Positions 12,598 through 23,254 are shown, counted from the stretch's first letter. The stretch is DNA of 64,000 nt from Tagaea sp. (GCA_965228135.1 OZ245798.1:1803037-1867036); one strand, 5' to 3'. A program made the numbers and translations. The notes: a model not told the origin generated them from the letters alone.

Positions 12598-13353
12598 GTG
12601 TCGAAGGAAGATAAAGACATCGCGGGCATCCAGTCGATCGAAGTCGGCGCCGCGATCCTGTTTGCGCTCGCCCAGATCGGCCGCCGCGCCACGCTCAACG
12701 AAATCGCCAGCGCCACCGGCATGGTGCCGGCCAAGCTGCATCGCTATCTGGCCAGCATGATGAAATCCGGGCTCGTGGTGCAGCCGAAGAAGGCGGGCGT
12801 CTACGCGCTGGGGCCCGGCGCCATCCGCATCGGCCTCGCCGCCCTTCAGCAGAACGATTTCTGCACCATCGCGACCCAGCATTTGGGCGAGATTCGCGAC
12901 GCGCTCGACGTCACCTGCTTCGGCGCGGTGCTCGGCAAGCAAGGTCCGACGATTTTCGCCCAGGAAGTGGCCGCCAACAACGTGGCGGTCTTCGTGCGTG
13001 TGGGTTCGGTTCTGCCGATGGAAAATTCCTCAACTGGCTGGGCTTTCGGCGCGTTCATGAGCGACAGCCAATACCGCGCCGTCTGCGGCATCGAGCGCGC
13101 CCGCGCGCCGGAAGCTACGCTCAAACGGCACCGGGAAGTGAAAAAGCATGGTTGCGCGCGCATTACGGACGAATATGTGCGGGGCATCAGCGCGATCTCC
13201 TATCCGGTATTCGGGCTGAACAACGCGATCGAGGGCGTGATCACGGCGCTGGGCGCGACCGGCAATTTCGATAACGCGGTCGACGGCCTGATTTCGAAGA
13301 AATTGCGCGAGGTCGCCAGCCAAATCGGCCGATCGCTGGGCGCGAACGTCTAA
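12598..13353 (+). CDS. IclR-family transcriptional regulator
   Basis: N-terminal wHTH (RATLNEIASATGMVPAKLHRYLASMMKSGLV) plus a C-terminal IclR effector domain. IclR regulators commonly control aromatic catabolic operons. Confidence 0.85.
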   Translation: MSKEDKDIAGIQSIEVGAAILFALAQIGRRATLNEIASATGMVPAKLHRYLASMMKSGLVVQPKKAGVYALGPGAIRIGLAALQQNDFCTIATQHLGEIRDALDVTCFGAVLGKQGPTIFAQEVAANNVAVFVRVGSVLPMENSSTGWAFGAFMSDSQYRAVCGIERARAPEATLKRHREVKKHGCARITDEYVRGISAISYPVFGLNNAIEGVITALGATGNFDNAVDGLISKKLREVASQIGRSLGANV

Positions 13354-13418
13354 AGCGATTTTGGTTCGATTTGCCACTATCCGGCGGCGATGCAGCGTGC
13401 GGATGCTCCAACGAAAAA

Positions 13419-13448
13419 GGGCCCGGACATGCGGTCCAGGCCCTTATT
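13419..13448 (+). terminator. intrinsic terminator-like hairpin after iclR
   Basis: GGGCCCGGAC-atgcg-GTCCAGGCCC followed by TTATT, with an A-run upstream. Confidence 0.5.
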
Positions 13449-13461
13449 CACTTCAAACCAA

Positions 13462-13531
13462 TGATGGGCGATGTAGGGCTCGAACCGACGACAAGCTGAT
13501 TAAGAGTCAGCGGGTAGGTCGAACTAATCCC
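13462..13531 (-). pseudogene. tRNA-Lys(CTT)-like fragment; the 3' half is intact and the 5' half is degenerate
   Basis: On the minus strand, an anticodon arm GCTGA-CTCTTAA-TCAGC (anticodon CTT), a T-arm GTCGG-TTCGAGC-CCTAC and an acceptor 3' strand ATCGCCC-A. The upstream GGGATTAG... cannot form a D-arm or pair with the acceptor. It sits exactly at the left GC-content break. Confidence 0.4.
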
Positions 13532-13958
13532 AAAGCTCAAGCGCGTCCCTCAACGAGGACGATATTGCTTATGCTTTGACCGAAAAGTCATTTCGAAGGA
13601 CTCTCAGTCCTACGTGATGATCGCTAAATCAATTGGTAAACGGCATTAAGTGGCATGCCCCAGGATTGTTGGATACCAATATAGGTATCTGGCTTGATGG
13701 GGTCGATGGCCCCTGCATCTAGCCTTACGGTGCCGTAGGCTAGTGGCCTTTAACCAGCCAGGGGAGACAGTCCACCCCATCAGGCCAGTAGTGACGTTAC
13801 CTTTGCCCGATAACGATTACGGCCTCCTTCAGGCATTAGAAGTTCTGACCGTTGAGCAACTATTGCGAAGCTTGCCACTAAAGCTTTCGCAGTATCCCTT
13901 CTCCCAAGGGCATTCAGAGCCGATAAACAGCGACTTCGAACAAATCTGCGCGAGCTAG

Positions 13959-14204
13959 TCACTTACCTGAGGCAGGCTTGGCACGACGAAAGCGCTGGGC
14001 AGGTGTCAAAAGGCCGTGCGAGGTCGATCTGAGCGCGACAGCAAGCTTGTCGAGCATATCCAATGACGCTGCGTAACGCTCGGTCTCCAGAAGCGAAACA
14101 TAGCTGCGGTCAATACCCGCAGCCATCGCCAGGGCTTCCTGGGACATCGCCCGCTCCCGCCGGATACGGCGCAAATTGATTGCCAAAACCCGTCTCGACC
14201 GCAT
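13959..14204 (-). CDS. XRE-family (Cro/CI-type) HTH transcriptional regulator
   Basis: LRRIRRERAMSQEALAMAAGIDRSYVSLLETERYAASLDMLDKLAVAL. A 60-aa ORF (13780..13962) is coupled downstream by a GTGA overlap. Confidence 0.75.
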   Translation of the reverse strand: MRSRRVLAINLRRIRRERAMSQEALAMAAGIDRSYVSLLETERYAASLDMLDKLAVALRSTSHGLLTPAQRFRRAKPASGK

Positions 14205-14313
14205 TCCCGGAGGGGACCAAGTTGCGGCCGAACGATCCACAGAGTATATTCAACAAATTATACTCATAGCCTGTACCCATCAGCAGGCAGGAATCCGCCT
14301 CGCGGCAACCAAG

Positions 14314-14961
14314 CGAATGGCTATCGAGGAGGAGCAATTCAAAGTGCTCGGACGACGGGACGCCCCCGCAGCCCCTGATATACGAAAGCGCCGTCGCTGG
14401 CCGTTTTGGCTCGCTGTCGCGGTCATCACCTGGCTAACGACCGAGAGCGTTTATGACCATCTTCGCCAAGCGCGTCTTGCCAAAGAAGATTCAGTAGAGG
14501 GCCGCGCATTTCGCGCGGAACAGGAGATAGCGGCAGCGGCCAAGGAACAAGCGGCGGCCAGCCGTTACAATGCAGAAAAAGCACGTGCCGCATTCCGAGC
14601 TCTTCCAGAAAAAGATCGAGTTACTCAGGCTGCCATGGATGAGGCCTTCCGCAATCCTGGAAAGAAGCCAAGACTCGCAGATGGTTACTTCATTACCATC
14701 GGCGACTACGGGATCGGTACCTCGGGATGGTATGGAAATATCTGGGTAGCCCGCGATGAGACTACCAAGCCATCGACTTGGTGCGAGTGGGCTGAAAGCT
14801 GGTTTTCATGGGTATGGCGCTGTACCAGCGTCCGCATATGCAGGGACTTCTGGCGCGGTTTTCGTTCTGGCCTTTTATTCATTGTCGTCGATCGCAAACA
14901 GCCGCCCATTCGAGCCTGCCGCGATCCTATTACCGGACTATGGAACAATTATAAGTTCTAG
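14314..14961 (+). CDS. hypothetical membrane-anchored protein (island cargo)
   Basis: Divergent from the XRE gene; it has one TM (WPFWLAVAVITWLTT), a charged A/E/K/R-rich middle and a Trp-rich C-terminus. The start is taken at MAIEEEQ; the track ORF begins at 14176. Confidence 0.4.
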   Translation, partial: RMAIEEEQFKVLGRRDAPAAPDIRKRRRWPFWLAVAVITWLTTESVYDHLRQARLAKEDSVEGRAFRAEQEIAAAAKEQAAASRYNAEKARAAFRALPEKDRVTQAAMDEAFRNPGKKPRLADGYFITIGDYGIGTSGWYGNIWVARDETTKPSTWCEWAESWFSWVWRCTSVRICRDFWRGFRSGLLFIVVDRKQPPIRACRDPITGLWNNYKF

Positions 14962-15042
14962 AAAAATAATTCCATCATCCTCTAATATAAGTCCAATATC
15001 ACCAATCACTGCCCAATCGGCAATGTTTCATAGGCGGCTAAA

Positions 15043-15477
15043 ATGGATCGAAGCGACGCAGCCCGGGAGCTCATGGCGATTTTTCTTGAAACGAAGAGTG
15101 TCCCGACGCCCGATCAACTGATCGCGCGAATTGAGAAAGTTGGAGCTCTTCAAAATCGAGCTCATCCCCTACTTCGCCCCATTACTCGTCAAGAAGCTGT
15201 CGAACTTGCGCAAGGCTCAATGCCGCAAGGGCTGGCCTTACATCGTTTCCGGCGCGCAGAGACGATGTGCGTTTGGATATCTGCCCATCGACGACTATAT
15301 CCTGACGCCTCGACTGACTGGCTCGAAGAGCTTTTCACTATTTTCGAATGGTCGCGATCGGGCTGCGAGGAAGGCGGCGAACTCGGATGCGACTGGATTT
15401 TCGCCGTGGAACACTTTGAAGGTCGCCCGAAGCTTATTCGAGATCCGATCGAAATTTCTCGCTCGAATTTCTTTTGA
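15043..15477 (+). CDS. hypothetical protein (island cargo)
   Basis: 144-aa ORF in a low-GC stretch with no recognisable motif. Confidence 0.35.
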   Translation: MDRSDAARELMAIFLETKSVPTPDQLIARIEKVGALQNRAHPLLRPITRQEAVELAQGSMPQGLALHRFRRAETMCVWISAHRRLYPDASTDWLEELFTIFEWSRSGCEEGGELGCDWIFAVEHFEGRPKLIRDPIEISRSNFF

Positions 15478-15783
15478 CGACTCTATGTCTCAGAACATCT
15501 CCCAATCCGCATTCACTCAACAACGTGATCGGCAGACGCAAGTGCCCACTCAACGTTCTCCCATCCGTTTCCTTCCAGAAAAGGCAGGCTTCCAATGGAA
15601 CCCGATGAAAACGAACAAAAGGAAGTCGGCGCGACCGAAACATCGCTACCGCCCTTATCACCAGATGAGCGGCGTTATATGCCCATGATGGGTTTTTTTC
15701 ATTGCTTCAAGCCCGTCGTTTGGCTGCGAAACTTGGAAGGCCACGGGCCGACGCCGCCTAAGGCAGACAAAGCCGATACCTAA

Positions 15784-16262: not shown

Positions 16263-17222
16263 CTAAGGAGTCTCGTGATTTCTCAAGAGCGTGCTTAGCG
16301 ATTTGAAGTCCATCCCATACCGCCCCAAATCCAGGATGAATTCGATCAAGTTCTGAGGCGTGTAGCCAAGTGCTCGATGCTTCTCACTCGATATACTGCG
16401 AATCAGCACTATGAGCATTTCAAAATCGATCTTGTTGCGCCCCGCCTCGATCAGAATTACTCCCAGCTTAGGAACAGTGTATCCCAGCTCGCGAATTTCT
16501 TCAGTGAAGGCCCCGTTGACCTCAACTCCGTCAGCGATCATTTCGGACGTGAATGACTTCTCGGTAAGCTTCCGCAAATTCGCACGCCGCTTTCGAATCT
16601 CTGCGGCATAATTCTCGGTCCATCCACTGTACCGCACCGCATGATTCTGATCACGCATTGCCCGCTCACGATAGACCTTTGCACGGTACCCTGGCGATTG
16701 GGCTAGACCTTGCGGAGCGTCAGGGAGAAGCGAGTTACTCGCTGTGAGATCCGGCGCAGCATCCCCGGCCACCACCTTATCTCCGCCGGACCGCAATTTT
16801 GAATCGGTATCAGATCTTGCGATCATCTCTGGCGCCGCTTGGCACGAGGCAATGCCTGCGCCTGAGGCAATAGCATCGGGTTTGATTACTGCAGGATCCG
16901 GCGTAGCTTCACCGACAACCACCCGATCTTCGCTGGGCGGGAGGTTCGCAGTGGCCCCAGGTTTTGCAGTCGCCTCTCGAGAGGTTTGGTTCAGGTCGAT
17001 GTCCACCTCCGTAGACTGGGCACGAGATTTGATCGCGATGGTCAACGCCTTATGCGTTTCGGCGCGGCGTCGGGCGTCCTCGGCATCTCGCTGCGCCTGC
17101 ATCCCCTTTCGCCCGAAATGCGACGACGTATTGGGCGGCGACGCGGCAACTATGTGAGTTGCTCCAGTATCGGCGGGTGTTGCCGTTACAGACGATTGAT
17201 CCAATTTGGTTTTCTCGGACAT
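16263..17222 (-). CDS. hypothetical protein upstream of, and divergent from, the relaxase gene (possible mobilisation accessory protein)
   Basis: 319 aa with an A/P/S/T-rich low-complexity N-terminal half and a structured C-terminal third; no identifiable domain. Confidence 0.4.
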   Translation of the reverse strand: MSEKTKLDQSSVTATPADTGATHIVAASPPNTSSHFGRKGMQAQRDAEDARRRAETHKALTIAIKSRAQSTEVDIDLNQTSREATAKPGATANLPPSEDRVVVGEATPDPAVIKPDAIASGAGIASCQAAPEMIARSDTDSKLRSGGDKVVAGDAAPDLTASNSLLPDAPQGLAQSPGYRAKVYRERAMRDQNHAVRYSGWTENYAAEIRKRRANLRKLTEKSFTSEMIADGVEVNGAFTEEIRELGYTVPKLGVILIEAGRNKIDFEMLIVLIRSISSEKHRALGYTPQNLIEFILDLGRYGMDFKSLSTLLRNHETP

Positions 17223-17288
17223 GAAGCATGCTCCTCAGTTTGCGTGCGCGCTTTCGAGTGCGCCCTAACAAACCGATTATCCACGACC

Positions 17289-17424
17289 GCTCTTAAAAAC
17301 CGCTGCGCGGCGACGTGCCTCCGCCCCTAGATGCCCAGCCATTTTCGACACAGTCAGCAAGGCTTCGTCGAAAACGACGCTCTGCCAAGAATCCGTCTGT
17401 TCGGGCGTAGGCGTTTTTAAGACG
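17289..17424. repeat. inverted-repeat pair CTCTTAAAAACCGC ... GCGTTTTTAAGAC (site A), arms about 105 bp apart
   Basis: Left arm 17289-17304 and right arm 17410-17424. The same motif recurs upstream of the recombinase gene at 21296-21346. Confidence 0.6.
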
Positions 17425-17450
17425 ACTGCCCCTACACTTGCCCTTGTCCG

Positions 17451-17481
17451 CACCGGGCGCTCCCGATGGGAGCGCCCGGTG
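17451..17481. repeat. perfect 14-bp inverted repeat with a 3-nt spacer
   Basis: CACCGGGCGCTCCC-gat-GGGAGCGCCCGGTG in the relaxase upstream region. Confidence 0.8.
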
Positions 17482-17521
17482 CCAAGAGATTACGAGCGGC
17501 CGCAACAGCGGCCGCCCTATT

Positions 17522-17555
17522 CCCTAGTCGGGGACGGCCACGTCCCCGACTAGGG
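17522..17555. repeat. perfect 15-bp inverted repeat with a 4-nt spacer (candidate oriT hairpin or terminator)
   Basis: CCCTAGTCGGGGACG-gcca-CGTCCCCGACTAGGG, about 50 bp before the annotated relaxase start codon. Confidence 0.8.
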
Positions 17556-17612
17556 CGCAATTACGCATTCGCTGCTTCAGGGCAACACGAATGCAGGCTG
17601 TTGGAGGTCTAA

Positions 17613-20600
17613 ATGGCGCGCGACGAACTCGAAGACGACCTTCTACGAACTCGCGCTGGACGCCTCGACGAGTCCGCCGAGCTTTCAAATATAAGGCGAC
17701 TATTAAGCACGCCGCGCAGCCGAAGCGTCTATCTGCCTTCCTTCCGGCATCAACCGCGGCAAACTCGCCCATTCCGGGAGCTCGAGCACCGGTTTCCCAC
17801 AGCGTACCGCGTCGCCGCCACCAACGGCGCCGTCGTATCGACGTTTCATTTCCAGCAAACGTTCCTGTCGAGACGCCCGCTGCCGTCGTTACCGCGATCA
17901 GTGCAGACGGGTAAGCGGACAATAATTTGGCCGACTCGCGGCCAAGCAAAGTTCGTGAGATCTTCTGTCGCCGGTGCGCGGTATCACCGCGATCAACGCG
18001 TCTGGACAGTCCCAAGTGACCATCGATTTCTGAGAACGGCCCTAGGCAAGGCTCTCTCCTCGCCGCTCGCGAGGGCTACAGCAACTTTAAGACGCACGAG
18101 AACCAGCCGCGATGGGATAAAGCGCCAAGCAATCTGGTTTGCGCACTATCTCACAAGAACCGGCCCCCTCGCCGATCGTGCCGACGAACTCGTTCACGAT
18201 AGGGCGGGCCCGATCGTCGAAGGCACAATCGGCAAATCCGCTGCCGAGCTATCGAGCTTTTGGAGTGCTGCAGACGCGGCGGAACCTCGGGTCGATGGCA
18301 GGATTCAAGAGCGTCTCATTATTGAGATTCCTCACTGGCTGCCGCCCGAGGAGATGCGAAAAGCCCTTCAGCGGTTCGGCGCCGAACTGACCGCGCGTGG
18401 CGTGCCCTGGGTCGGTGCTGTGCACAGGCCCGACCCCCATGGGGATCCACGTAATTATCACGTTCATATCGTTCTCGGAACACGGGGGCTAATCGGATGG
18501 GAGATGCGCGCCGTTGACAACGATCCAGGCACCCTTCGCCGCGAACCGATCTTCGCCGATAAGAAAGATCGCGCAATGCAAGGGGAGAAGTGGATCTCAC
18601 ACTTGCGCAAGATCTACGCTGAAATCGTCAATCAAATCTCGATCGAATGGTCGCAGCGCGAAGGAACATTGGTGCCGCGCATTTTCCACGCCGGCAGCAA
18701 TGCCGAACTCGGCATCGAGGCTATACCATCCCGGCATCGAGGCCCTCGGCAAAGCGCGATCGATCGACGTATCGTCGCGCGCGGCGATGAACCTCGCCAC
18801 GTTCCAATTTACGAAGTCCAAGATGAACCCCGCATGGCGCAGATTCTGCGTGGCTTCAATGCCGATGAGGCGGCTTTTCTCGCGCTCTGCGACCGCATAG
18901 AACGCCTCGTCGTCGACGCAGATGCGACTGAATCCATTAGAAGCAGCCGCGCATCGCTGATCACAGCCGCCGACACAACTGCAGCGGCGATTGAGCTGTG
19001 CGAAGAGAAAATCGAAGCGGTCTTGGTCGAATTTCAGGTGGATCGTGACGATGAAAGCCCGATCACCGATCATGATCGAATGTCATCCGACAGCATCCGC
19101 GAACTCGTCGATGCGGTCCGTGTAACCGTTTCTCGTTCCCACGATATCGAAAAGGAACTGATCGCGGTGCTCGCGCATAGCGAGACCATTCGTGACATTT
19201 CGCCGATCACCGAAAGCGCGGCCGCAGAGACAAAATCAGCGAAAGAATTGGAGCAAGCGGAAGCGACGATTGATCACCTGCCTGCCATAAATAAGTCGGT
19301 CATTCATCCGATCGAAGAACAGCACCTTTATGCCAATCCTTCTTCTGGTGAGCGTCCTGAAACTGAACGGTCTGAGCCATCGCACCACGTGCTGGTTACG
19401 TCGCCGCCCGAGCAGCCACAAAGTATCATCGCCGTTAAAGATACTCTTACACGGAGGCTCCAAGACCATCATAGAGCTATTATGCTCATCAAAGAACGAG
19501 GCTGGCGTCACGGGGCTACGGCGACCCGGCACGCCGAAGCTCGAGAAGCTCAGTTCGAGGCATTCAAAAGACGCCTCGCCGCGGAGGAAGCGGCCGAACG
19601 CTGTGAACGTCTCGTCAAATCAATCTCTGAAAGTTCATTCGAGAGTATCGGGCCAAATGACGCGTCACCACACGGCGCGAGCCACCACAACAATCAGTGC
19701 GACTTTGAACAACTCTTAAAAGAATTGGAATTAGCTGATCATCGTATATCGGAAACGCAGCAGGCGCTCGAACATTGGGAAGATATCGAGCGGAAGCTAC
19801 AGGACGTCCCCTTCATCGACGAACGTTTGCATGACCCAAAAAACTTGGTACCGCGGATACTCGAAGAATCTGACCCAGACTGGGTCATCGCAGAAATTCA
19901 AAGACAATTGAAAAAGTGCCGCTGGGTTCCGCGACACCGTGGTCAAAGAATTGTGAAGCCGATGCTTCGCGATGCCGACATCACTCTCGGCGACGTGGTT
20001 GAAGCACGAGTCCGTTACTCGCAAGAGAATGGTTGGACGATTGAATTTCCGCGCTTCTCCAGCGAGAGCGCGCGCCGTGACGCTACGGATCAACAGTGCC
20101 TTTGGATGGCGTTGATTACTCAGATGTTCATGACCACCACGCAAAGTGTCGGTAGCAAAGAGATTGCCGGTATTCTCAAGTGTTATGGCTTCACAAAAAT
20201 CGAGCCCGATAAGAACGGCATCATTGAGATTCGTAGATCTGACGGCTTGCTGCGCGTCGCACGTGATGGTCGCTTTGCAAGCGTCTACGGGTCCAATGTG
20301 GACCTGCATGCGGCGTTCGACGCGTTTGCCCACGCACGCCATGACAGTAGCAGCGACATTGCATTACAGAAAATCCTTGAAAGCAAGAAAGAGCCTCCGC
20401 TCGTTTTTTATCCTAACGATGCCGATCGCAAAGTCGATCTGATTAAGATCGCTAACGATATTCTTCACTTACATGAACTCCAGCCAATCGATCGTCAGCG
20501 CGTTCAGCACGTCGGTCATGCGTTGAAGAAGCACGAGAAGGCGCTAGAGACCTTTCATCCGACATTGAAGCCGGCCGAGAAGCAAGTCGCAGTAGATGAC

Positions 20601-21074
20601 TCGAGTTCGCGGCCTCCATTAATAGAGGCCAAGAATCAGACCGAAGCGGATTTGGAACACGCCCGAGAGCCAAGGCGCCATCTCGCGCGTCAAGAAGATG
20701 ACAGCGGGATATTTGGCCGCCTGACGCGTGGCATCGTGCAATGGTGGCGCGATACGACTGAAGTCCAGGGAGGCGAATCTCGGTCCACAATGAAGCCGTC
20801 AAAGCGCTCGCCTATGAGTTTTGATGCGCGGGCTTTCGAGCATCATGTATCGCGAAATGCGTCTTCGACGAACGCGGCATCCAGCGCGACGCGGATCAAA
20901 CAGGTAGATACGACGCCCGTCACCCAAGCCACGGGGCCAACAATCGCAGCGCGCCCGGCGACGCCTCCGCGGTCGCCAAACATTGGAAACGCCGCAGGCA
21001 GCGGCGGCAGCAGCGTTCACGACGTTATCCAGTCGGTGCGGTCGCGCGGTCGCGACCGTGATCGCGAACGATAA
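17613..21074 (+). CDS. MobA/MobL-family (TraA-like, MOBQ-type) conjugative relaxase with an ~800-aa C-terminal extension of unknown function
   Basis: The 3-His motif VHRPDPHGDPRNYHVHIVL, FW...IIEIPHWLPPEE, a HYLTRTG block and a candidate catalytic Tyr in SSVAGARYHRD are collinear with Ti-plasmid TraA. The first ~96 codons of the track ORF look non-coding; a GTG at 17901 (SVQTGKRTIIW) is the probable start. No Walker A or helicase motif follows. Confidence 0.8.
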   Translation: MARDELEDDLLRTRAGRLDESAELSNIRRLLSTPRSRSVYLPSFRHQPRQTRPFRELEHRFPTAYRVAATNGAVVSTFHFQQTFLSRRPLPSLPRSVQTGKRTIIWPTRGQAKFVRSSVAGARYHRDQRVWTVPSDHRFLRTALGKALSSPLARATATLRRTRTSRDGIKRQAIWFAHYLTRTGPLADRADELVHDRAGPIVEGTIGKSAAELSSFWSAADAAEPRVDGRIQERLIIEIPHWLPPEEMRKALQRFGAELTARGVPWVGAVHRPDPHGDPRNYHVHIVLGTRGLIGWEMRAVDNDPGTLRREPIFADKKDRAMQGEKWISHLRKIYAEIVNQISIEWSQREGTLVPRIFHAGSNAELGIEAIPSRHRGPRQSAIDRRIVARGDEPRHVPIYEVQDEPRMAQILRGFNADEAAFLALCDRIERLVVDADATESIRSSRASLITAADTTAAAIELCEEKIEAVLVEFQVDRDDESPITDHDRMSSDSIRELVDAVRVTVSRSHDIEKELIAVLAHSETIRDISPITESAAAETKSAKELEQAEATIDHLPAINKSVIHPIEEQHLYANPSSGERPETERSEPSHHVLVTSPPEQPQSIIAVKDTLTRRLQDHHRAIMLIKERGWRHGATATRHAEAREAQFEAFKRRLAAEEAAERCERLVKSISESSFESIGPNDASPHGASHHNNQCDFEQLLKELELADHRISETQQALEHWEDIERKLQDVPFIDERLHDPKNLVPRILEESDPDWVIAEIQRQLKKCRWVPRHRGQRIVKPMLRDADITLGDVVEARVRYSQENGWTIEFPRFSSESARRDATDQQCLWMALITQMFMTTTQSVGSKEIAGILKCYGFTKIEPDKNGIIEIRRSDGLLRVARDGRFASVYGSNVDLHAAFDAFAHARHDSSSDIALQKILESKKEPPLVFYPNDADRKVDLIKIANDILHLHELQPIDRQRVQHVGHALKKHEKALETFHPTLKPAEKQVAVDDSSSRPPLIEAKNQTEADLEHAREPRRHLARQEDDSGIFGRLTRGIVQWWRDTTEVQGGESRSTMKPSKRSPMSFDARAFEHHVSRNASSTNAASSATRIKQVDTTPVTQATGPTIAARPATPPRSPNIGNAAGSGGSSVHDVIQSVRSRGRDRDRER

Positions 21075-21295: not shown

Positions 21296-21346
21296 CTCTT
21301 AAAACCGCTCGAAAGAGCCAAGCCGCGACGCGGCCGTTTTTAAGAC
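21296..21346. repeat. inverted repeat CTCTTAAAACCGCT-(22 bp)-GGCCGTTTTTAAGAC (site B) after an AT-rich stretch; candidate recombinase/att or oriT-like site
   Basis: Same arms as site A at 17289/17410. Preceded by ctaagttattgtaaataatatactatttagattt, about 240 bp upstream of the recombinase start. Confidence 0.55.
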
Positions 21347-21581
21347 CCCAGCTTGACAATGTCCGCATGGATAGGACGAGCAAATCCAGCGGCCGGGGCG
21401 GCATCTACGCCCCTGAGCCGGCGCCCAGCGAGGGCGCCGGCGGCCGATCAGATTCGTCCTCGACCCTCCATGCCCAAGCGAACGAACTTCTACGTACCCT
21501 TGCACGTCTGCTTGTGCACGACAGCGAATTGCAGCAGCCTCAAGCGCCGATGGATAAGACCTCAGATCAGCCGAAGGACGA

Positions 21582-23243
21582 ATGCAAATGATCAGGGCTG
21601 CGATCTACGCACGCTATTCCAGCGACTTGCAGCGCGAATCCTCGATCGACGATCAGGTCAGAATTTGCCGGGAGCGGATCGAACGCGACGGCGGCGCCGT
21701 TACGGAAACCTACGCCGACGCAGCGATCAGTGGATCGCGTGCAGCAAACCGCCCTTCACTTCAACGACTGGTAAGCGACGCTCGCCTTCGTCGGTTCACT
21801 CACGTCTATATGGAGGCGCTGGACCGACTGAGTCGCGACCAGGAAGACGTTGCCGGACTGTTCAAGCGGTTACGTCATGCGGACGTGACCGTCATCACGT
21901 TGAGCGAGGGCGAAATCAGCGAACTGCACGTCGGGCTAAAGGGCACGATGAACGCCCTCTACCTAAAAGACCTTGCTGACAAGGTACGACGCGGCCAGCG
22001 CGGCCGTGTGGCCCAACAACGAGCGGCAGGAGGACTCGGATACGGATACGATGTCGTTCGGAACATCGACAGCGATGGCGAGATCGATCGTGGCGTCCGC
22101 GCGGTCAACGAGACCGAGGCAGGCGTGATCCGGCGTATTTTTGGCGAGTATGTGGCTGGTAGATCACCCCGCACCATCGCACGAAACTTGAATGCAGATG
22201 GCGTTCCTGCGCCGCGCGGGGGCGCCTGGAATGCGTCAACAATAAATGGGCATCCCGTGCGCCTGCACGGTATCCTGACAAATCCCTTATTCAATGGCGT
22301 GATGATCTACAACCGTGTCGGTTATCGCAGGGATCCAGAAACGGGAAAGCGTCAACTCCGCTCGGTACCATCGGACCAATGGGTCCATGTTGAGATGCCG
22401 CATTTACGTATCGTCGACCCTGATACTTGGAACAAAGCACAATCGATTCGAGGCCAACTCGGTCAGACAAAGCGCCTAAACCATACTCATAGGCCCAAGC
22501 ACCTGCTGTCGGGGCTCATACGTTGCGGCATTTGTGGCGGAGCATACACGGTGGTCGCCTCAGGCCGACTTGGCTGTGTTGCACGCCGCGAAAAAGGGAC
22601 ATGCACCAACGCGCGGTCGGTAAAAACCGAGGAACTAACCACACGCGTGCTATCGGGAATCAAACAGCGCCTTCTGTCTCCTGCGATGTTCGCCGAATTT
22701 ATGGAAGAATTTCAGGCGACGCAGTCCGCCCGCGATAAGGCCGAGATCGACAACATGGCCGCACTCCGTCGAGAAGAGCGGGAACTCAATCAGCGAATCG
22801 AACGTTACGTGACCGCTATTGGGGATGGAACAGACAGCCCTGCAGTTCGGAAAGCCCTAATCGAGGCAGAGAATCGGATCGCCGCGATTCGCGCCGAAAT
22901 GTGCAAATCCAAACCGCCGTCGGCCCCCGAACTGCATCCGGCGTTACCTGAGCTATACCGTCGGCGCGTCGAGCAGCTTGAACACGCGTTCGCCAATGAC
23001 CCGACAAACAGAGCGCGAGCTGCCCAGATCATCCGGTCCCTCGTGGAGCAGATTCGGGTATTTCCCCAGGACGCGCGCGGTGCTGTCGAAATTGAGGTCG
23101 CAGGCGCCATCGCCCAGATACTGGCGTTGGCACAACAAAAAGACGTCGAAGATCAAATGGATGGAATGATGGTCTCGATGGTGCCCGGGGCCGGAATCGA
23201 ACCAGCGACACTGCGATTTTCAATCGCATGCTCTACCAACTGA
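21582..23243 (+). CDS. large serine recombinase (resolvase/invertase N-terminal domain, recombinase domain, zinc ribbon, coiled-coil)
   Basis: AAIYARYSSDLQ (catalytic Ser), LDRLSRD, and CGICGGAY...C..C zinc ribbon. The last ~22 codons read through the tRNA-Phe gene on the opposite strand. Confidence 0.9.
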   Translation: MQMIRAAIYARYSSDLQRESSIDDQVRICRERIERDGGAVTETYADAAISGSRAANRPSLQRLVSDARLRRFTHVYMEALDRLSRDQEDVAGLFKRLRHADVTVITLSEGEISELHVGLKGTMNALYLKDLADKVRRGQRGRVAQQRAAGGLGYGYDVVRNIDSDGEIDRGVRAVNETEAGVIRRIFGEYVAGRSPRTIARNLNADGVPAPRGGAWNASTINGHPVRLHGILTNPLFNGVMIYNRVGYRRDPETGKRQLRSVPSDQWVHVEMPHLRIVDPDTWNKAQSIRGQLGQTKRLNHTHRPKHLLSGLIRCGICGGAYTVVASGRLGCVARREKGTCTNARSVKTEELTTRVLSGIKQRLLSPAMFAEFMEEFQATQSARDKAEIDNMAALRREERELNQRIERYVTAIGDGTDSPAVRKALIEAENRIAAIRAEMCKSKPPSAPELHPALPELYRRRVEQLEHAFANDPTNRARAAQIIRSLVEQIRVFPQDARGAVEIEVAGAIAQILALAQQKDVEDQMDGMMVSMVPGAGIEPATLRFSIACSTN

Positions 23244-23254
23244 GCTACCCGGGC
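23179..23254 (-). tRNA. tRNA-Phe (anticodon GAA)
   Basis: Minus strand reads GCCCGGGTAGCTCAGTTGGTAGAGCATGCGATTGAAAATCGCAGTGTCGCTGGTTCGATTCCGGCCCCGGGCACCA. This is a canonical 76-nt cloverleaf, near-identical to E. coli tRNA-Phe, with CCA encoded. Confidence 0.95.

Follow-up and report, generated by a model that had tools for sequence, protein, structure and literature searches.

The stretch of DNA analyzed in this study, hereafter the window, is 64,000 nt long and comes from Tagaea sp. (GCA_965228135.1, OZ245798.1:1803037-1867036). The host has a high-GC, alphaproteobacterium-like genome, and the window contains an element that adjoins a tRNA gene and carries a relaxase gene; relaxases determine which DNA is mobilized and by which conjugation machine. 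The relaxase gene is preceded by a predicted origin of transfer (oriT) and a divergently oriented gene, and it is followed by a gene for a large serine recombinase and by tRNA-Phe (Table 1). The encoded protein contains a MOBQ core that is framed by two conserved domains without relatives in Pfam, in the sequences of the Protein Data Bank (PDB), or in 72,556 plasmids.

Table 1 Features of the relaxase gene, the predicted oriT, and the surrounding island, in coordinates of the window. Residue numbers (aa, amino acids) refer to the relaxase; the vertical arrow marks the predicted nick. AF2, AlphaFold2; ORF, open reading frame; SD, Shine–Dalgarno sequence.
Feature	Position	Strand	Basis or remark
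Relaxase gene, 1153 aa/codons	17613-21074	+	Start ATG 17613; SD GGAGG 17603-17607
N-terminal extension, aa 1-154	17613-18074	+	Conserved in 16 relatives, basic
MOBQ-type HUH relaxase core, aa ~155-395	18075-18797	+	Pfam, profile alignment, Foldseek
Catalytic Tyr179 codon	18147-18149	+	Aligns to MobA Y25
3-His motif HRPDPHGDPRNYHVH, aa 271-285 (H271/H283/H285)	18423-18467	+	Aligns to MobA H112/H120/H122
Acidic linker, poorly conserved, aa 396-734	18798-19814	+	Only the first ~80 aa kept family-wide
Predicted folded α/β C-terminal domain, aa 735-987	19815-20573	+	AF2, family profile
Tail, aa 988-1153	20574-21071	+	Alignment of 18 relatives
Amphipathic motif GIFGRLTRGIVQWWRD, aa 1032-1047	20706-20753	+	Tail alignment
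Terminal motif VRSRGRDRDRER, aa 1142-1153	21036-21071	+	6 Arg in the last 12 residues
Predicted oriT	17522-17594	-	MOBQ consensus match; conservation; hairpins
Predicted nic core 5'-TAATTGCG↓CCCT-3'	17563→17552	-	11/12 to MOBQ consensus ..TAAGTGCGCCCT..
Inverted repeat GCATTCG/CGAATGC	17565-17571 / 17588-17594		5' of nic on the nicked strand
15-bp hairpin starting at the predicted nick	17522-17536 / 17541-17555		100% paired; 4 pairs changed on both sides
Second conserved 15-bp hairpin, predicted leading region	17450-17482		97.8% paired; 3 pairs changed on both sides
GCGGCCGC-N4-GCGGCCGC	17496-17515		Between the two hairpins
Divergent gene, 319 aa, no known family	16263-17222	-	Across oriT from the relaxase in all loci
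74-aa ORF overlapping the recombinase start	21367-21591		
Large serine recombinase, island integrase	21582-23243	+	Resolvase, Recombinase, and Zn_ribbon_recom (Pfam)
tRNA-Phe(GAA), right border of the island	23179-23254	-	tRNA scan/Rfam; GC ~0.59 to 0.66
Approximate left end of the island	13585-13644		80% identity over 60 nt to L001 7564-7623

Relaxase gene, catalytic core, and predicted oriT

The relaxase ORF opens directly after an in-frame TAA at 17610, and its extent, as given in an earlier note on this DNA, was confirmed. The same note had read the first ~96 codons as non-coding translation and named GTG 17901 as a candidate start; this GTG is present and is codon 97. ATG 17613 is the only in-frame ATG within the first 247 codons, the next being codon 248, and it is separated from the GGAGG by a spacer of 5 nt, whereas no SD or purine-rich box was found upstream of GTG 17901. 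In an alignment with eight homologues (26-83% identical), the Met equivalent to M1 was the start in all eight, and M1 plus ~35 further N-terminal positions were invariant; the invariant residues within aa 1-165 include M1, D8, R14, G16-E20, L30, L31, H79, S86-R88, W131, and F139. Codon alignments with two related loci gave ratios of nonsynonymous to synonymous substitution (dN/dS) of 0.12 and 0.14 for codons 1-96 versus 0.14 and 0.13 for the catalytic core, and the synonymous divergence of codons 1-96 was high (~1.0-1.3). Purifying selection is equally strong on these codons and on the core. In addition, the order and spacing of the oriT core, GGAG, and ATG are kept in six loci. A protein beginning at GTG 17901, with the first ~96 codons untranslated, would be in keeping with the unusual-looking, Arg/Pro/Ser-rich N-terminal sequence and with AF2 confidence below 50 over aa 1-71, but the SD, the residues invariant from M1 on in relatives with saturated synonymous divergence, the low dN/dS, and the retained oriT-to-ATG spacing and GGAG box all speak against it. 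Translation start at GTG 17901 was thus ruled out by the SD, the conservation, and dN/dS, and we regard it as extremely improbable. The segment once taken for non-coding is conserved in all 16 full-length relatives, and because of the SD, the conservation from M1, and the low dN/dS, the first 154 aa are a translated and selected, family-specific domain. These comparisons indicate that the true start is ATG 17613 and that doubt over it is unsupported; annotation of the long ORF from this ATG is correct.

The core of the protein was matched by Pfam MobA_MobL (PF03389) at 36.9 bits (cut-off, 26.7) over aa 208-386. When a profile of the family was searched against 177,635 PDB sequences, the only solved structure found was the minimal relaxase of MobA from R1162 (2ns6, E 2.6e-6). 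In this alignment, aa 170-340 lie on MobA residues 16-178, with Y179 on Y25 and H271, H283, and H285 on H112, H120, and H122, respectively. The three histidines make up the metal site, in a motif of the form HxDx(n)HxH, and Y179 is invariant in 16 relatives. An AF2 model of aa 1-400, with a mean predicted local distance difference test (pLDDT) score of 63, was matched by Foldseek to 2ns6 (E 2.6e-8, TM score on the target 0.67) and to NES (4ht4, E 1.5e-4). In a comparison with the 72,556 plasmids, MobQ relaxases and the relaxase portion of Ti-type TraA proteins both showed 30-36% identity to the core. The NCBIfam model for MobQ (NF041496) gave a partial match of 44.2 bits, which is below its cut-off of 200, so that the protein is a divergent MOBQ member and not an equivalog. 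The earlier assignment as a MobA/MobL-type relaxase carrying the 3-His motif was borne out; the range then given for the core, residues 100-350, was not, and is corrected to ~155/170-390. Nicking chemistry by Y179 and the three histidines is strongly supported by homology. A second candidate for the catalytic Tyr, Y123 in RSSVAGARYHR, which resembles the canonical GRSSVAAAAYRSG, was rejected: several relatives have R or Q in its place, and it is Y179 that never varies and lies on MobA Y25.

The relaxase gene and the divergent gene upstream of it are separated by 390 bp, in which the predicted oriT lies 52 nt upstream of the relaxase ATG. The published MOBQ oriT consensus is 5'-NWACCNNTAAGTGCGCCCTYNN-3' (PMC3832669), and we took ..TAAGTGCG↓CCCT.. 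with an inverted repeat on its 5' side as the criterion for a MOBQ nic. The minus-strand 12-mer listed in Table 1, TAATTGCGCCCT, agrees with the consensus at 11 of 12 positions and has such a repeat; the predicted nic-bearing sequence of the minus strand is CGAATGCGTAATTGCGCCCTAGTC. The nick is predicted between 17556 and 17555, and in the longer predicted nic-containing oligonucleotide 5'-TGCATTCGTGTTGCCCTGAAGCAGCGAATGCGTAATTGCGCCCTAGTCGGGG-3', cleavage is expected after ...TTGCG. The 12-mer is identical and at the same position in the related loci L001, L002, and L005, and in the distant loci L003, L006, and L007 the core CGCAAT[TA]ACGCAT with flanking repeats is found ~50 nt 5' of the start codon. 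The inverted repeat is invariant among three close loci. Both hairpins have been maintained by compensatory substitutions, with seven pairs changed on both sides and 98-100% of positions paired, a result reached by 0 of 500 shuffles. Given the polarity, a nick on the minus strand means that the relaxase gene would enter the recipient last. By its profile match, Tyr/His motif, fold, and predicted oriT, the protein is a divergent MOBQ-class relaxase.

Several other sequences were noted in this region. A nic-like sequence on the plus strand, GTGCGCCCT (17258-17266), which stands within GAGTGCGCCCTAAC (17256-17269), was rejected as nic: neither L001 nor L005 conserves it, and one such 9-mer match per 64 kb is expected by chance. 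The palindromic octamer pair GCGGCCGC-N4-GCGGCCGC is conserved in L001 and L005 with a varying spacer and may be a protein binding site of the leading region. Three terminator-like units, each a GC hairpin followed by TTTTTAAGA, are located at 17291-17312 (minus strand), at 17394-17423 (plus strand), and, downstream of the relaxase, at 21322-21345 (plus strand); the first two converge on a stretch of ~100 nt that is hypervariable among the window, L001, and L005, with conserved flanks. A promoter scan detected no sigma-70-like site near the relaxase gene.

Domains flanking the catalytic core

The N-terminal extension is strongly basic, with an isoelectric point (pI) of 11.8 and a net charge of +17. 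Among the 12 members computed, the pI was 10.4-12.0 (at least 11.3 in 11 of them) and the net charge +11 to +19. Its family-specific motifs are R.GRLDE (aa 14-20), the invariant F78-H79 followed by SRR, and RVWT..GHRFL (aa 129-140). The same extension occurs in 16 proteins, including the distant P0019-P0021, in the form R.G[RK]L.[DE], [FY]H (aa 78-79), SR[RK], G.R...[WF]P, RVW[TS], and GH.FL, and dN/dS across it is 0.12-0.23. No relatives were found outside the relaxase family and none in the 72,556 plasmids, and with no match in Pfam, NCBIfam, or the PDB sequences, the extension is undescribed. In the AF2 model, aa 1-71 are of low confidence (pLDDT <50), and aa 110-150 have a pLDDT of 71-85. 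The basic extension probably makes further contacts with DNA at the hairpin-rich oriT; it may also complete the relaxase fold.

How far the extension belongs to the fold itself can be considered from its F78-H79 motif. Canonical MobA and NES relaxases carry their first β-strand at the very N-terminus (MAIYH../MAIFH..). The extension could be partly integral to the HUH fold, with TFHFQQTFLSRR (aa 77-88) as the first β-strand and aa ~89-150 as an insertion before the Tyr helix. MAFFT paired FHFQ with the N-terminal FHCQ and FHFA of the canonical relaxases P0010 and P0009, and the best local hhalign match of the extension to canonical N-termini fell on the same strand. The motif is invariant in 16 of 16 relatives (F or Y at 78), and AF2 placed strands at aa 74-76 and 80-84 and, in the position expected for a collinear first strand, a long helix (aa 151-181). 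However, the hhalign probability was just 2% over 10 columns, and model confidence is low at aa 70-100 (pLDDT 46-57). Furthermore, when aa 72-88 or 72-90 were fused directly to a segment starting at aa 166 or 170 and ending at aa 400, the Pfam MobA_MobL match neither scored higher nor reached beyond profile position 45. We therefore regard this arrangement of the fold as doubtful.

The C-terminal region consists of a linker, a predicted folded domain, and a tail. The linker is acidic (pI 5.0 and net charge -30, computed on aa 396-745), evolves with a dN/dS of 0.35-0.39, aligns with gaps in distant relatives, and had no Pfam match at E ≤ 0.01. For the C-terminal domain, AF2 with a 17-sequence alignment predicted an α/β fold with a pLDDT of 89.8 and a predicted TM score (pTM) of 0.85; the dN/dS is 0.17. 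A profile of the domain gave 14 matches among 1.84 billion representative proteins, and each full-length one has a MobA_MobL core that starts near aa 200, from which it follows that these proteins share the same three-part architecture. The invariant residues are W771, W831, D885, G893, and R909, a combination that looks like a structural core and not like a catalytic set. Searches with 17 members gave no Pfam match at E ≤ 10, no PDB sequence matched at E ≤ 10, and a Foldseek search of the PDB and BFVD gave no significant fold match. Weak matches that recurred (E 0.003-0.6) were to RnlA/RNase LS, TBP, the N-domain of RNase HIII, and the C-domain of PGM; the best TBP-like ones had E 0.029 and 0.003 with a TM score of ~0.2. 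With no match in families, PDB sequences, or plasmids, the domain is undescribed.

In the tail, a Pro/Ala/Ser/Thr-rich spacer separates the amphipathic motif from the terminal motif, and dN/dS is 0.42 overall. The terminal pattern R.R[DE].[DG][RW][GE]R is retained throughout the family as an Arg-rich motif of the RGRDRDRER / RGRDRDRGR type. Another MobA/MobL relaxase, 832 aa long, was seen in Sphingobium vermicomposti (locus L008, 9443-11941, plus strand). It shares the core motif WVAAVHRPD..H.H and ends in the Arg-rich ...RLGRDTER, its N-terminal extension is unrelated, and it has no copy of the C-terminal domain; the Arg-rich terminus thus seems to be more widespread than the domain.

According to the earlier note, the C-terminal ~800 aa had no helicase, primase, or Walker A motif, were of unknown function, and showed only acidic coiled-coil-like segments. 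The absence of such motifs held up in profile and fold searches, and no described family covers the region. The acidity was likewise found, but the region is not featureless, since it contains the domain at aa 735-987 and a basic C-terminus. That the region is a degenerate helicase or primase, and the protein an ordinary one of the TraA or MobA(RSF1010) type, is highly improbable. The NCBIfam model TraA_Ti did match in part, over the core only (profile positions 62-234 of 751), but its score of 48 bits falls short of the cut-off of 590. Neither NCBIfam nor Pfam at E ≤ 1 for the whole protein detected a family of helicases, P-loop proteins, Toprim proteins, or primases, nor did Pfam at E ≤ 10 for 17 C-terminal domains, and the family profile found no helicase or primase chain among the 177,635 PDB sequences at E ≤ 10. 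No Walker A is conserved anywhere in the family, whereas the TraA-type positive control P0010 has one at aa 413; there was no RecD/TraI or RepB' fold match and no invariant acidic or His/Cys cluster. A hidden helicase or primase was thus searched for with Pfam, NCBIfam, PDB-sequence profiles, motif regular expressions, and Foldseek, all with negative results; the profile and structure check that the note had called for gave instead the predicted domain at aa 735-987.

Comparison with known relaxases places these regions in context. With Ti-type TraA (TIGR02768), the protein shares a MobA/MobL-type core (~30-33% identical) and alphaproteobacterial hosts, but it has neither the RecD-like helicase nor Walker A, and the TraA model matched the core only (48.2 bits against a cut-off of 590). 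The note had called the architecture atypical for a TraA-type relaxase lacking its helicase. The lack of a helicase stands, and the word is half apt: because the core is ~30-36% identical to helicase-less MobQ relaxases and to Ti-type TraA alike, helicase absence is normal for MOBQ. The atypical parts are the basic N-terminal extension, which is conserved, and the C-terminal domain, which has no match. The protein can be aligned with MobA of RSF1010/R1162 in its HUH fold and catalytic residues. A TAA(G/T)TGCG↓CCCT nic core preceded on its 5' side by an inverted repeat is common to the oriT regions of the two, and both have an Arg-containing C-terminus, which has been implicated in recognition by the type IV secretion system (T4SS). 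By contrast, the identity is ~22% in the structural alignment, and MobA begins with the first β-strand where a 154-aa basic extension stands here. The C-terminal half of MobA is the RepB' primase; here, Pfam, NCBIfam, PDB-sequence, and Foldseek-PDB searches found no primase, and the unmatched α/β domain takes that place. MobA is also plasmid-borne, whereas this family was found in chromosomal islands only, with no copies in the 72,556 plasmids. HD or alternative 3H TraI_2 relaxases belong to a different class with a C-terminal TraI_2_C, and no sequence relationship to them was detected by Pfam. The family is rare, with ~20 clusters at 50% identity in 1.8 billion proteins, and a full-length alignment search of 185,579 species genomes found only two architecture-complete loci; the third locus, L008, matched in the core only.

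The island and its neighboring genes

The relaxase gene lies in a block of low GC content at ~13.4-23.2 kb (~0.55-0.60, compared with 0.65 around it). The right border is tRNA-Phe, which was the only Rfam hit on the island. On the left, GC falls from 0.64 to ~0.55 near 13200-13600, and, of all sequence to the left of the mobilization module, the window shares with the L001 island only the segment taken as the approximate left end (Table 1). These borders are thus estimates from composition and comparison, the left one approximate, and no direct repeats were found. Beyond the relaxase and the recombinase, the island has no ORF longer than 320 aa, and its ORFs gave no match to a T4SS or a type IV coupling protein. 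Having its own integrase, relaxase, and oriT but no T4SS or coupling protein, it is classified as an integrative mobilizable element (IME) of ~9.6 kb.

The order relaxase–serine recombinase recurs in L001, L002, L005, and the P0007 contig. In L001, L002, and the P0007 contig, the contigs that reach far enough for the comparison, TfoX comes next, and the chromosomal site is therefore the same. The distant relaxase relatives from metagenome-assembled genomes of Tagaea and Azospirillum adjoin tyrosine integrases. The last ~65 nt (~21 codons) of the serine recombinase gene overlap the opposite-strand tRNA-Phe, whose 3' end adjoins the island. A gap of ~55 nt, into which a tRNA gene could fit, likewise separates the recombinase from tfoX in L001 and L002. 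A serine integrase aimed at a tRNA gene with its own C-terminus across the junction is unusual, and excision might alter the end of the recombinase. Near the left GC drop, the minus strand of 13463-13512 looks like the 3' half of a tRNA, in which GGGCTCGAACC is similar to a T-arm and CTGATTAAGAGTCAG to an anticodon stem. Neither ARAGORN nor Rfam called this stretch, which may be left over from the attachment site of a different element.

According to a 2017 review, none of the proteobacterial IMEs described by that time was canonical in the sense of having its own relaxase but lacking a T4SS; IMEs with a serine recombinase were known mainly from Firmicutes and were inserted inside genes (PMC5704250). 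The present island resembles canonical IMEs in having an integrase, a relaxase, an oriT, and an accessory gene and in lacking genes for the mating pore and the coupling protein, but it differs in its alphaproteobacterium-like high-GC host and in being a serine-recombinase element that abuts a tRNA. The enzyme class and the lifestyle are familiar; the domains on either side of the core, and a serine-recombinase island next to a tRNA gene, are not.

Homologues of the divergent upstream protein are present in the window, L001, L003, L005, L006, and L007, with an MSEKxKLxQS N-terminus and a repeated [RH][EA]LGYT.. motif; no Pfam or PADLOC match was obtained for it. Its middle part is long, variable, and probably disordered, and a C-terminal motif of ~35 aa, ..RELGYTVPKLG..L.EAGR.KIDF..LI.L.R.., is present in two copies here and in one copy in the shorter L003 and L007 homologues. 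In RSF1010, mobC is opposite mobA, a divergent accessory gene across oriT, and the upstream product here is probably a relaxosome accessory factor. In the left part of the island (13959-15688), an XRE/HTH_3 regulator is encoded at 13959-14240 (minus strand), and the ORFs of 144-261 aa had no Pfam or PADLOC match. The cargo differs in related islands, with GmrSD in L006 and an AAA_13 ATPase in the P0007 contig.

Possible role of the C-terminal half

We propose the following course of transfer. The core would nick the minus strand at TAATTGCG↓CCCT and stay covalently on the 5' end, and strand transfer would then proceed, with the relaxase gene entering the recipient last. Because the island has no coupling protein or T4SS, the nucleoprotein complex would have to pass to the machinery of a co-resident conjugative element. 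The C-terminal half would hand the complex to this helper, the acidic flexible linker presenting a non-enzymatic α/β domain followed by a disordered Arg-rich tail. Domain and tail together would make up a bipartite signal for type IV secretion, functionally analogous to a BID domain plus tail but with an unrelated domain, and unwinding and priming would be left to the host or helper, as in helicase-less MOBQ systems.

Published signals provide the model for this proposal. Secretion of MobA by VirB depends on a C-terminal cluster of positive charge, and relaxases also have large folded signals (PMC3297438; PMC3912908); in alphaproteobacterial relaxases, a folded domain and a positively charged tail form a bipartite signal (PMC6509941). 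The similarity to the BID signal of alphaproteobacterial relaxases and Beps lies in a folded non-catalytic domain followed by a short positive tail, here with 6 Arg in the last 12 residues. Since the island has no coupling protein, such signals are known from the literature, and the domain seems non-enzymatic, the C-terminal domain and the Arg-rich terminus are most simply read as a recruitment signal. Taken as a whole, the reading that we slightly favor is that the protein is the relaxase of an IME beside tRNA-Phe, starting at ATG 17613, whose C-terminal half may recruit a helper coupling protein.

Several points weigh against this reading. The role proposed for the domain and tail is drawn from architecture and analogy, and neither a T4SS nor a coupling protein of a helper can be seen in the window. 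The domain is predicted to be α/β and ~250 aa long, whereas BID is a four-helix fold of ~100 aa; there was no match to BID or any other Pfam family, and the signal is a predicted one. Nor was the TraI TSA structure among the matches of the domain when the PDB was searched. Over the final 12 residues, the net charge is just +3 because Arg alternates with Asp and Glu. The nick position is a consensus prediction, and the model of the N-terminal part is of low-to-moderate confidence (mean pLDDT 63; aa 1-71 below 50). In addition, the weak TBP-like and RnlA-like matches may fit nucleic-acid binding equally well.

This last point leads to a different role for the domain, which we consider rather unlikely: that of a nucleic-acid-binding module with a TBP-like saddle acting on DNA, for example in additional recognition of oriT or its hairpins, in holding the 3' end for recircularization, or in protecting and positioning the strand on the recipient side. 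The only recurring weak fold matches were TBP-like, and several of the matched proteins bind nucleic acids. In the AF2 model, the order E-H-E-E-E-E-H (E, strand; H, helix) at aa 748-843 fits the topology of one TBP repeat. The domain is mildly basic in most members (pI 8.4-9.9), and the several conserved hairpins of the oriT region need readers. However, the fold matches were insignificant, several members are acidic (pI 5.4-6.8), and no basic surface residues are conserved, the invariant ones being W, W, D, G, and R; the basic N-terminal extension is a better candidate for additional DNA binding.

To return to recruitment of a helper, a broader proposal can be formulated, which we put forward tentatively as a possibility. 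The C-terminal domain (aa 735-987) and the RGRDRDRGR-type motif might form an undescribed class of type IV secretion recruitment signal, and the N-terminal extension might be a new DNA-recognition module that lies partly in the HUH fold; together, they would define a new MOBQ subclade of alphaproteobacterial IMEs.

The islands with this relaxase are minimal and chromosomal and carry serine or tyrosine integrases. If it is true that the C-terminal domain and tail capture a helper coupling protein, the protein offers a compact, testable model of how a hitch-hiker island is recognized, and the predicted oriT and nick site are clear enough that the system is directly testable in vitro. If the extension is built into the HUH fold, this would amount to a rewiring of a relaxase architecture in which the N-terminus is normally critical, and the recruitment signal, if real, would let a minimal island pirate the conjugation systems of its helpers.

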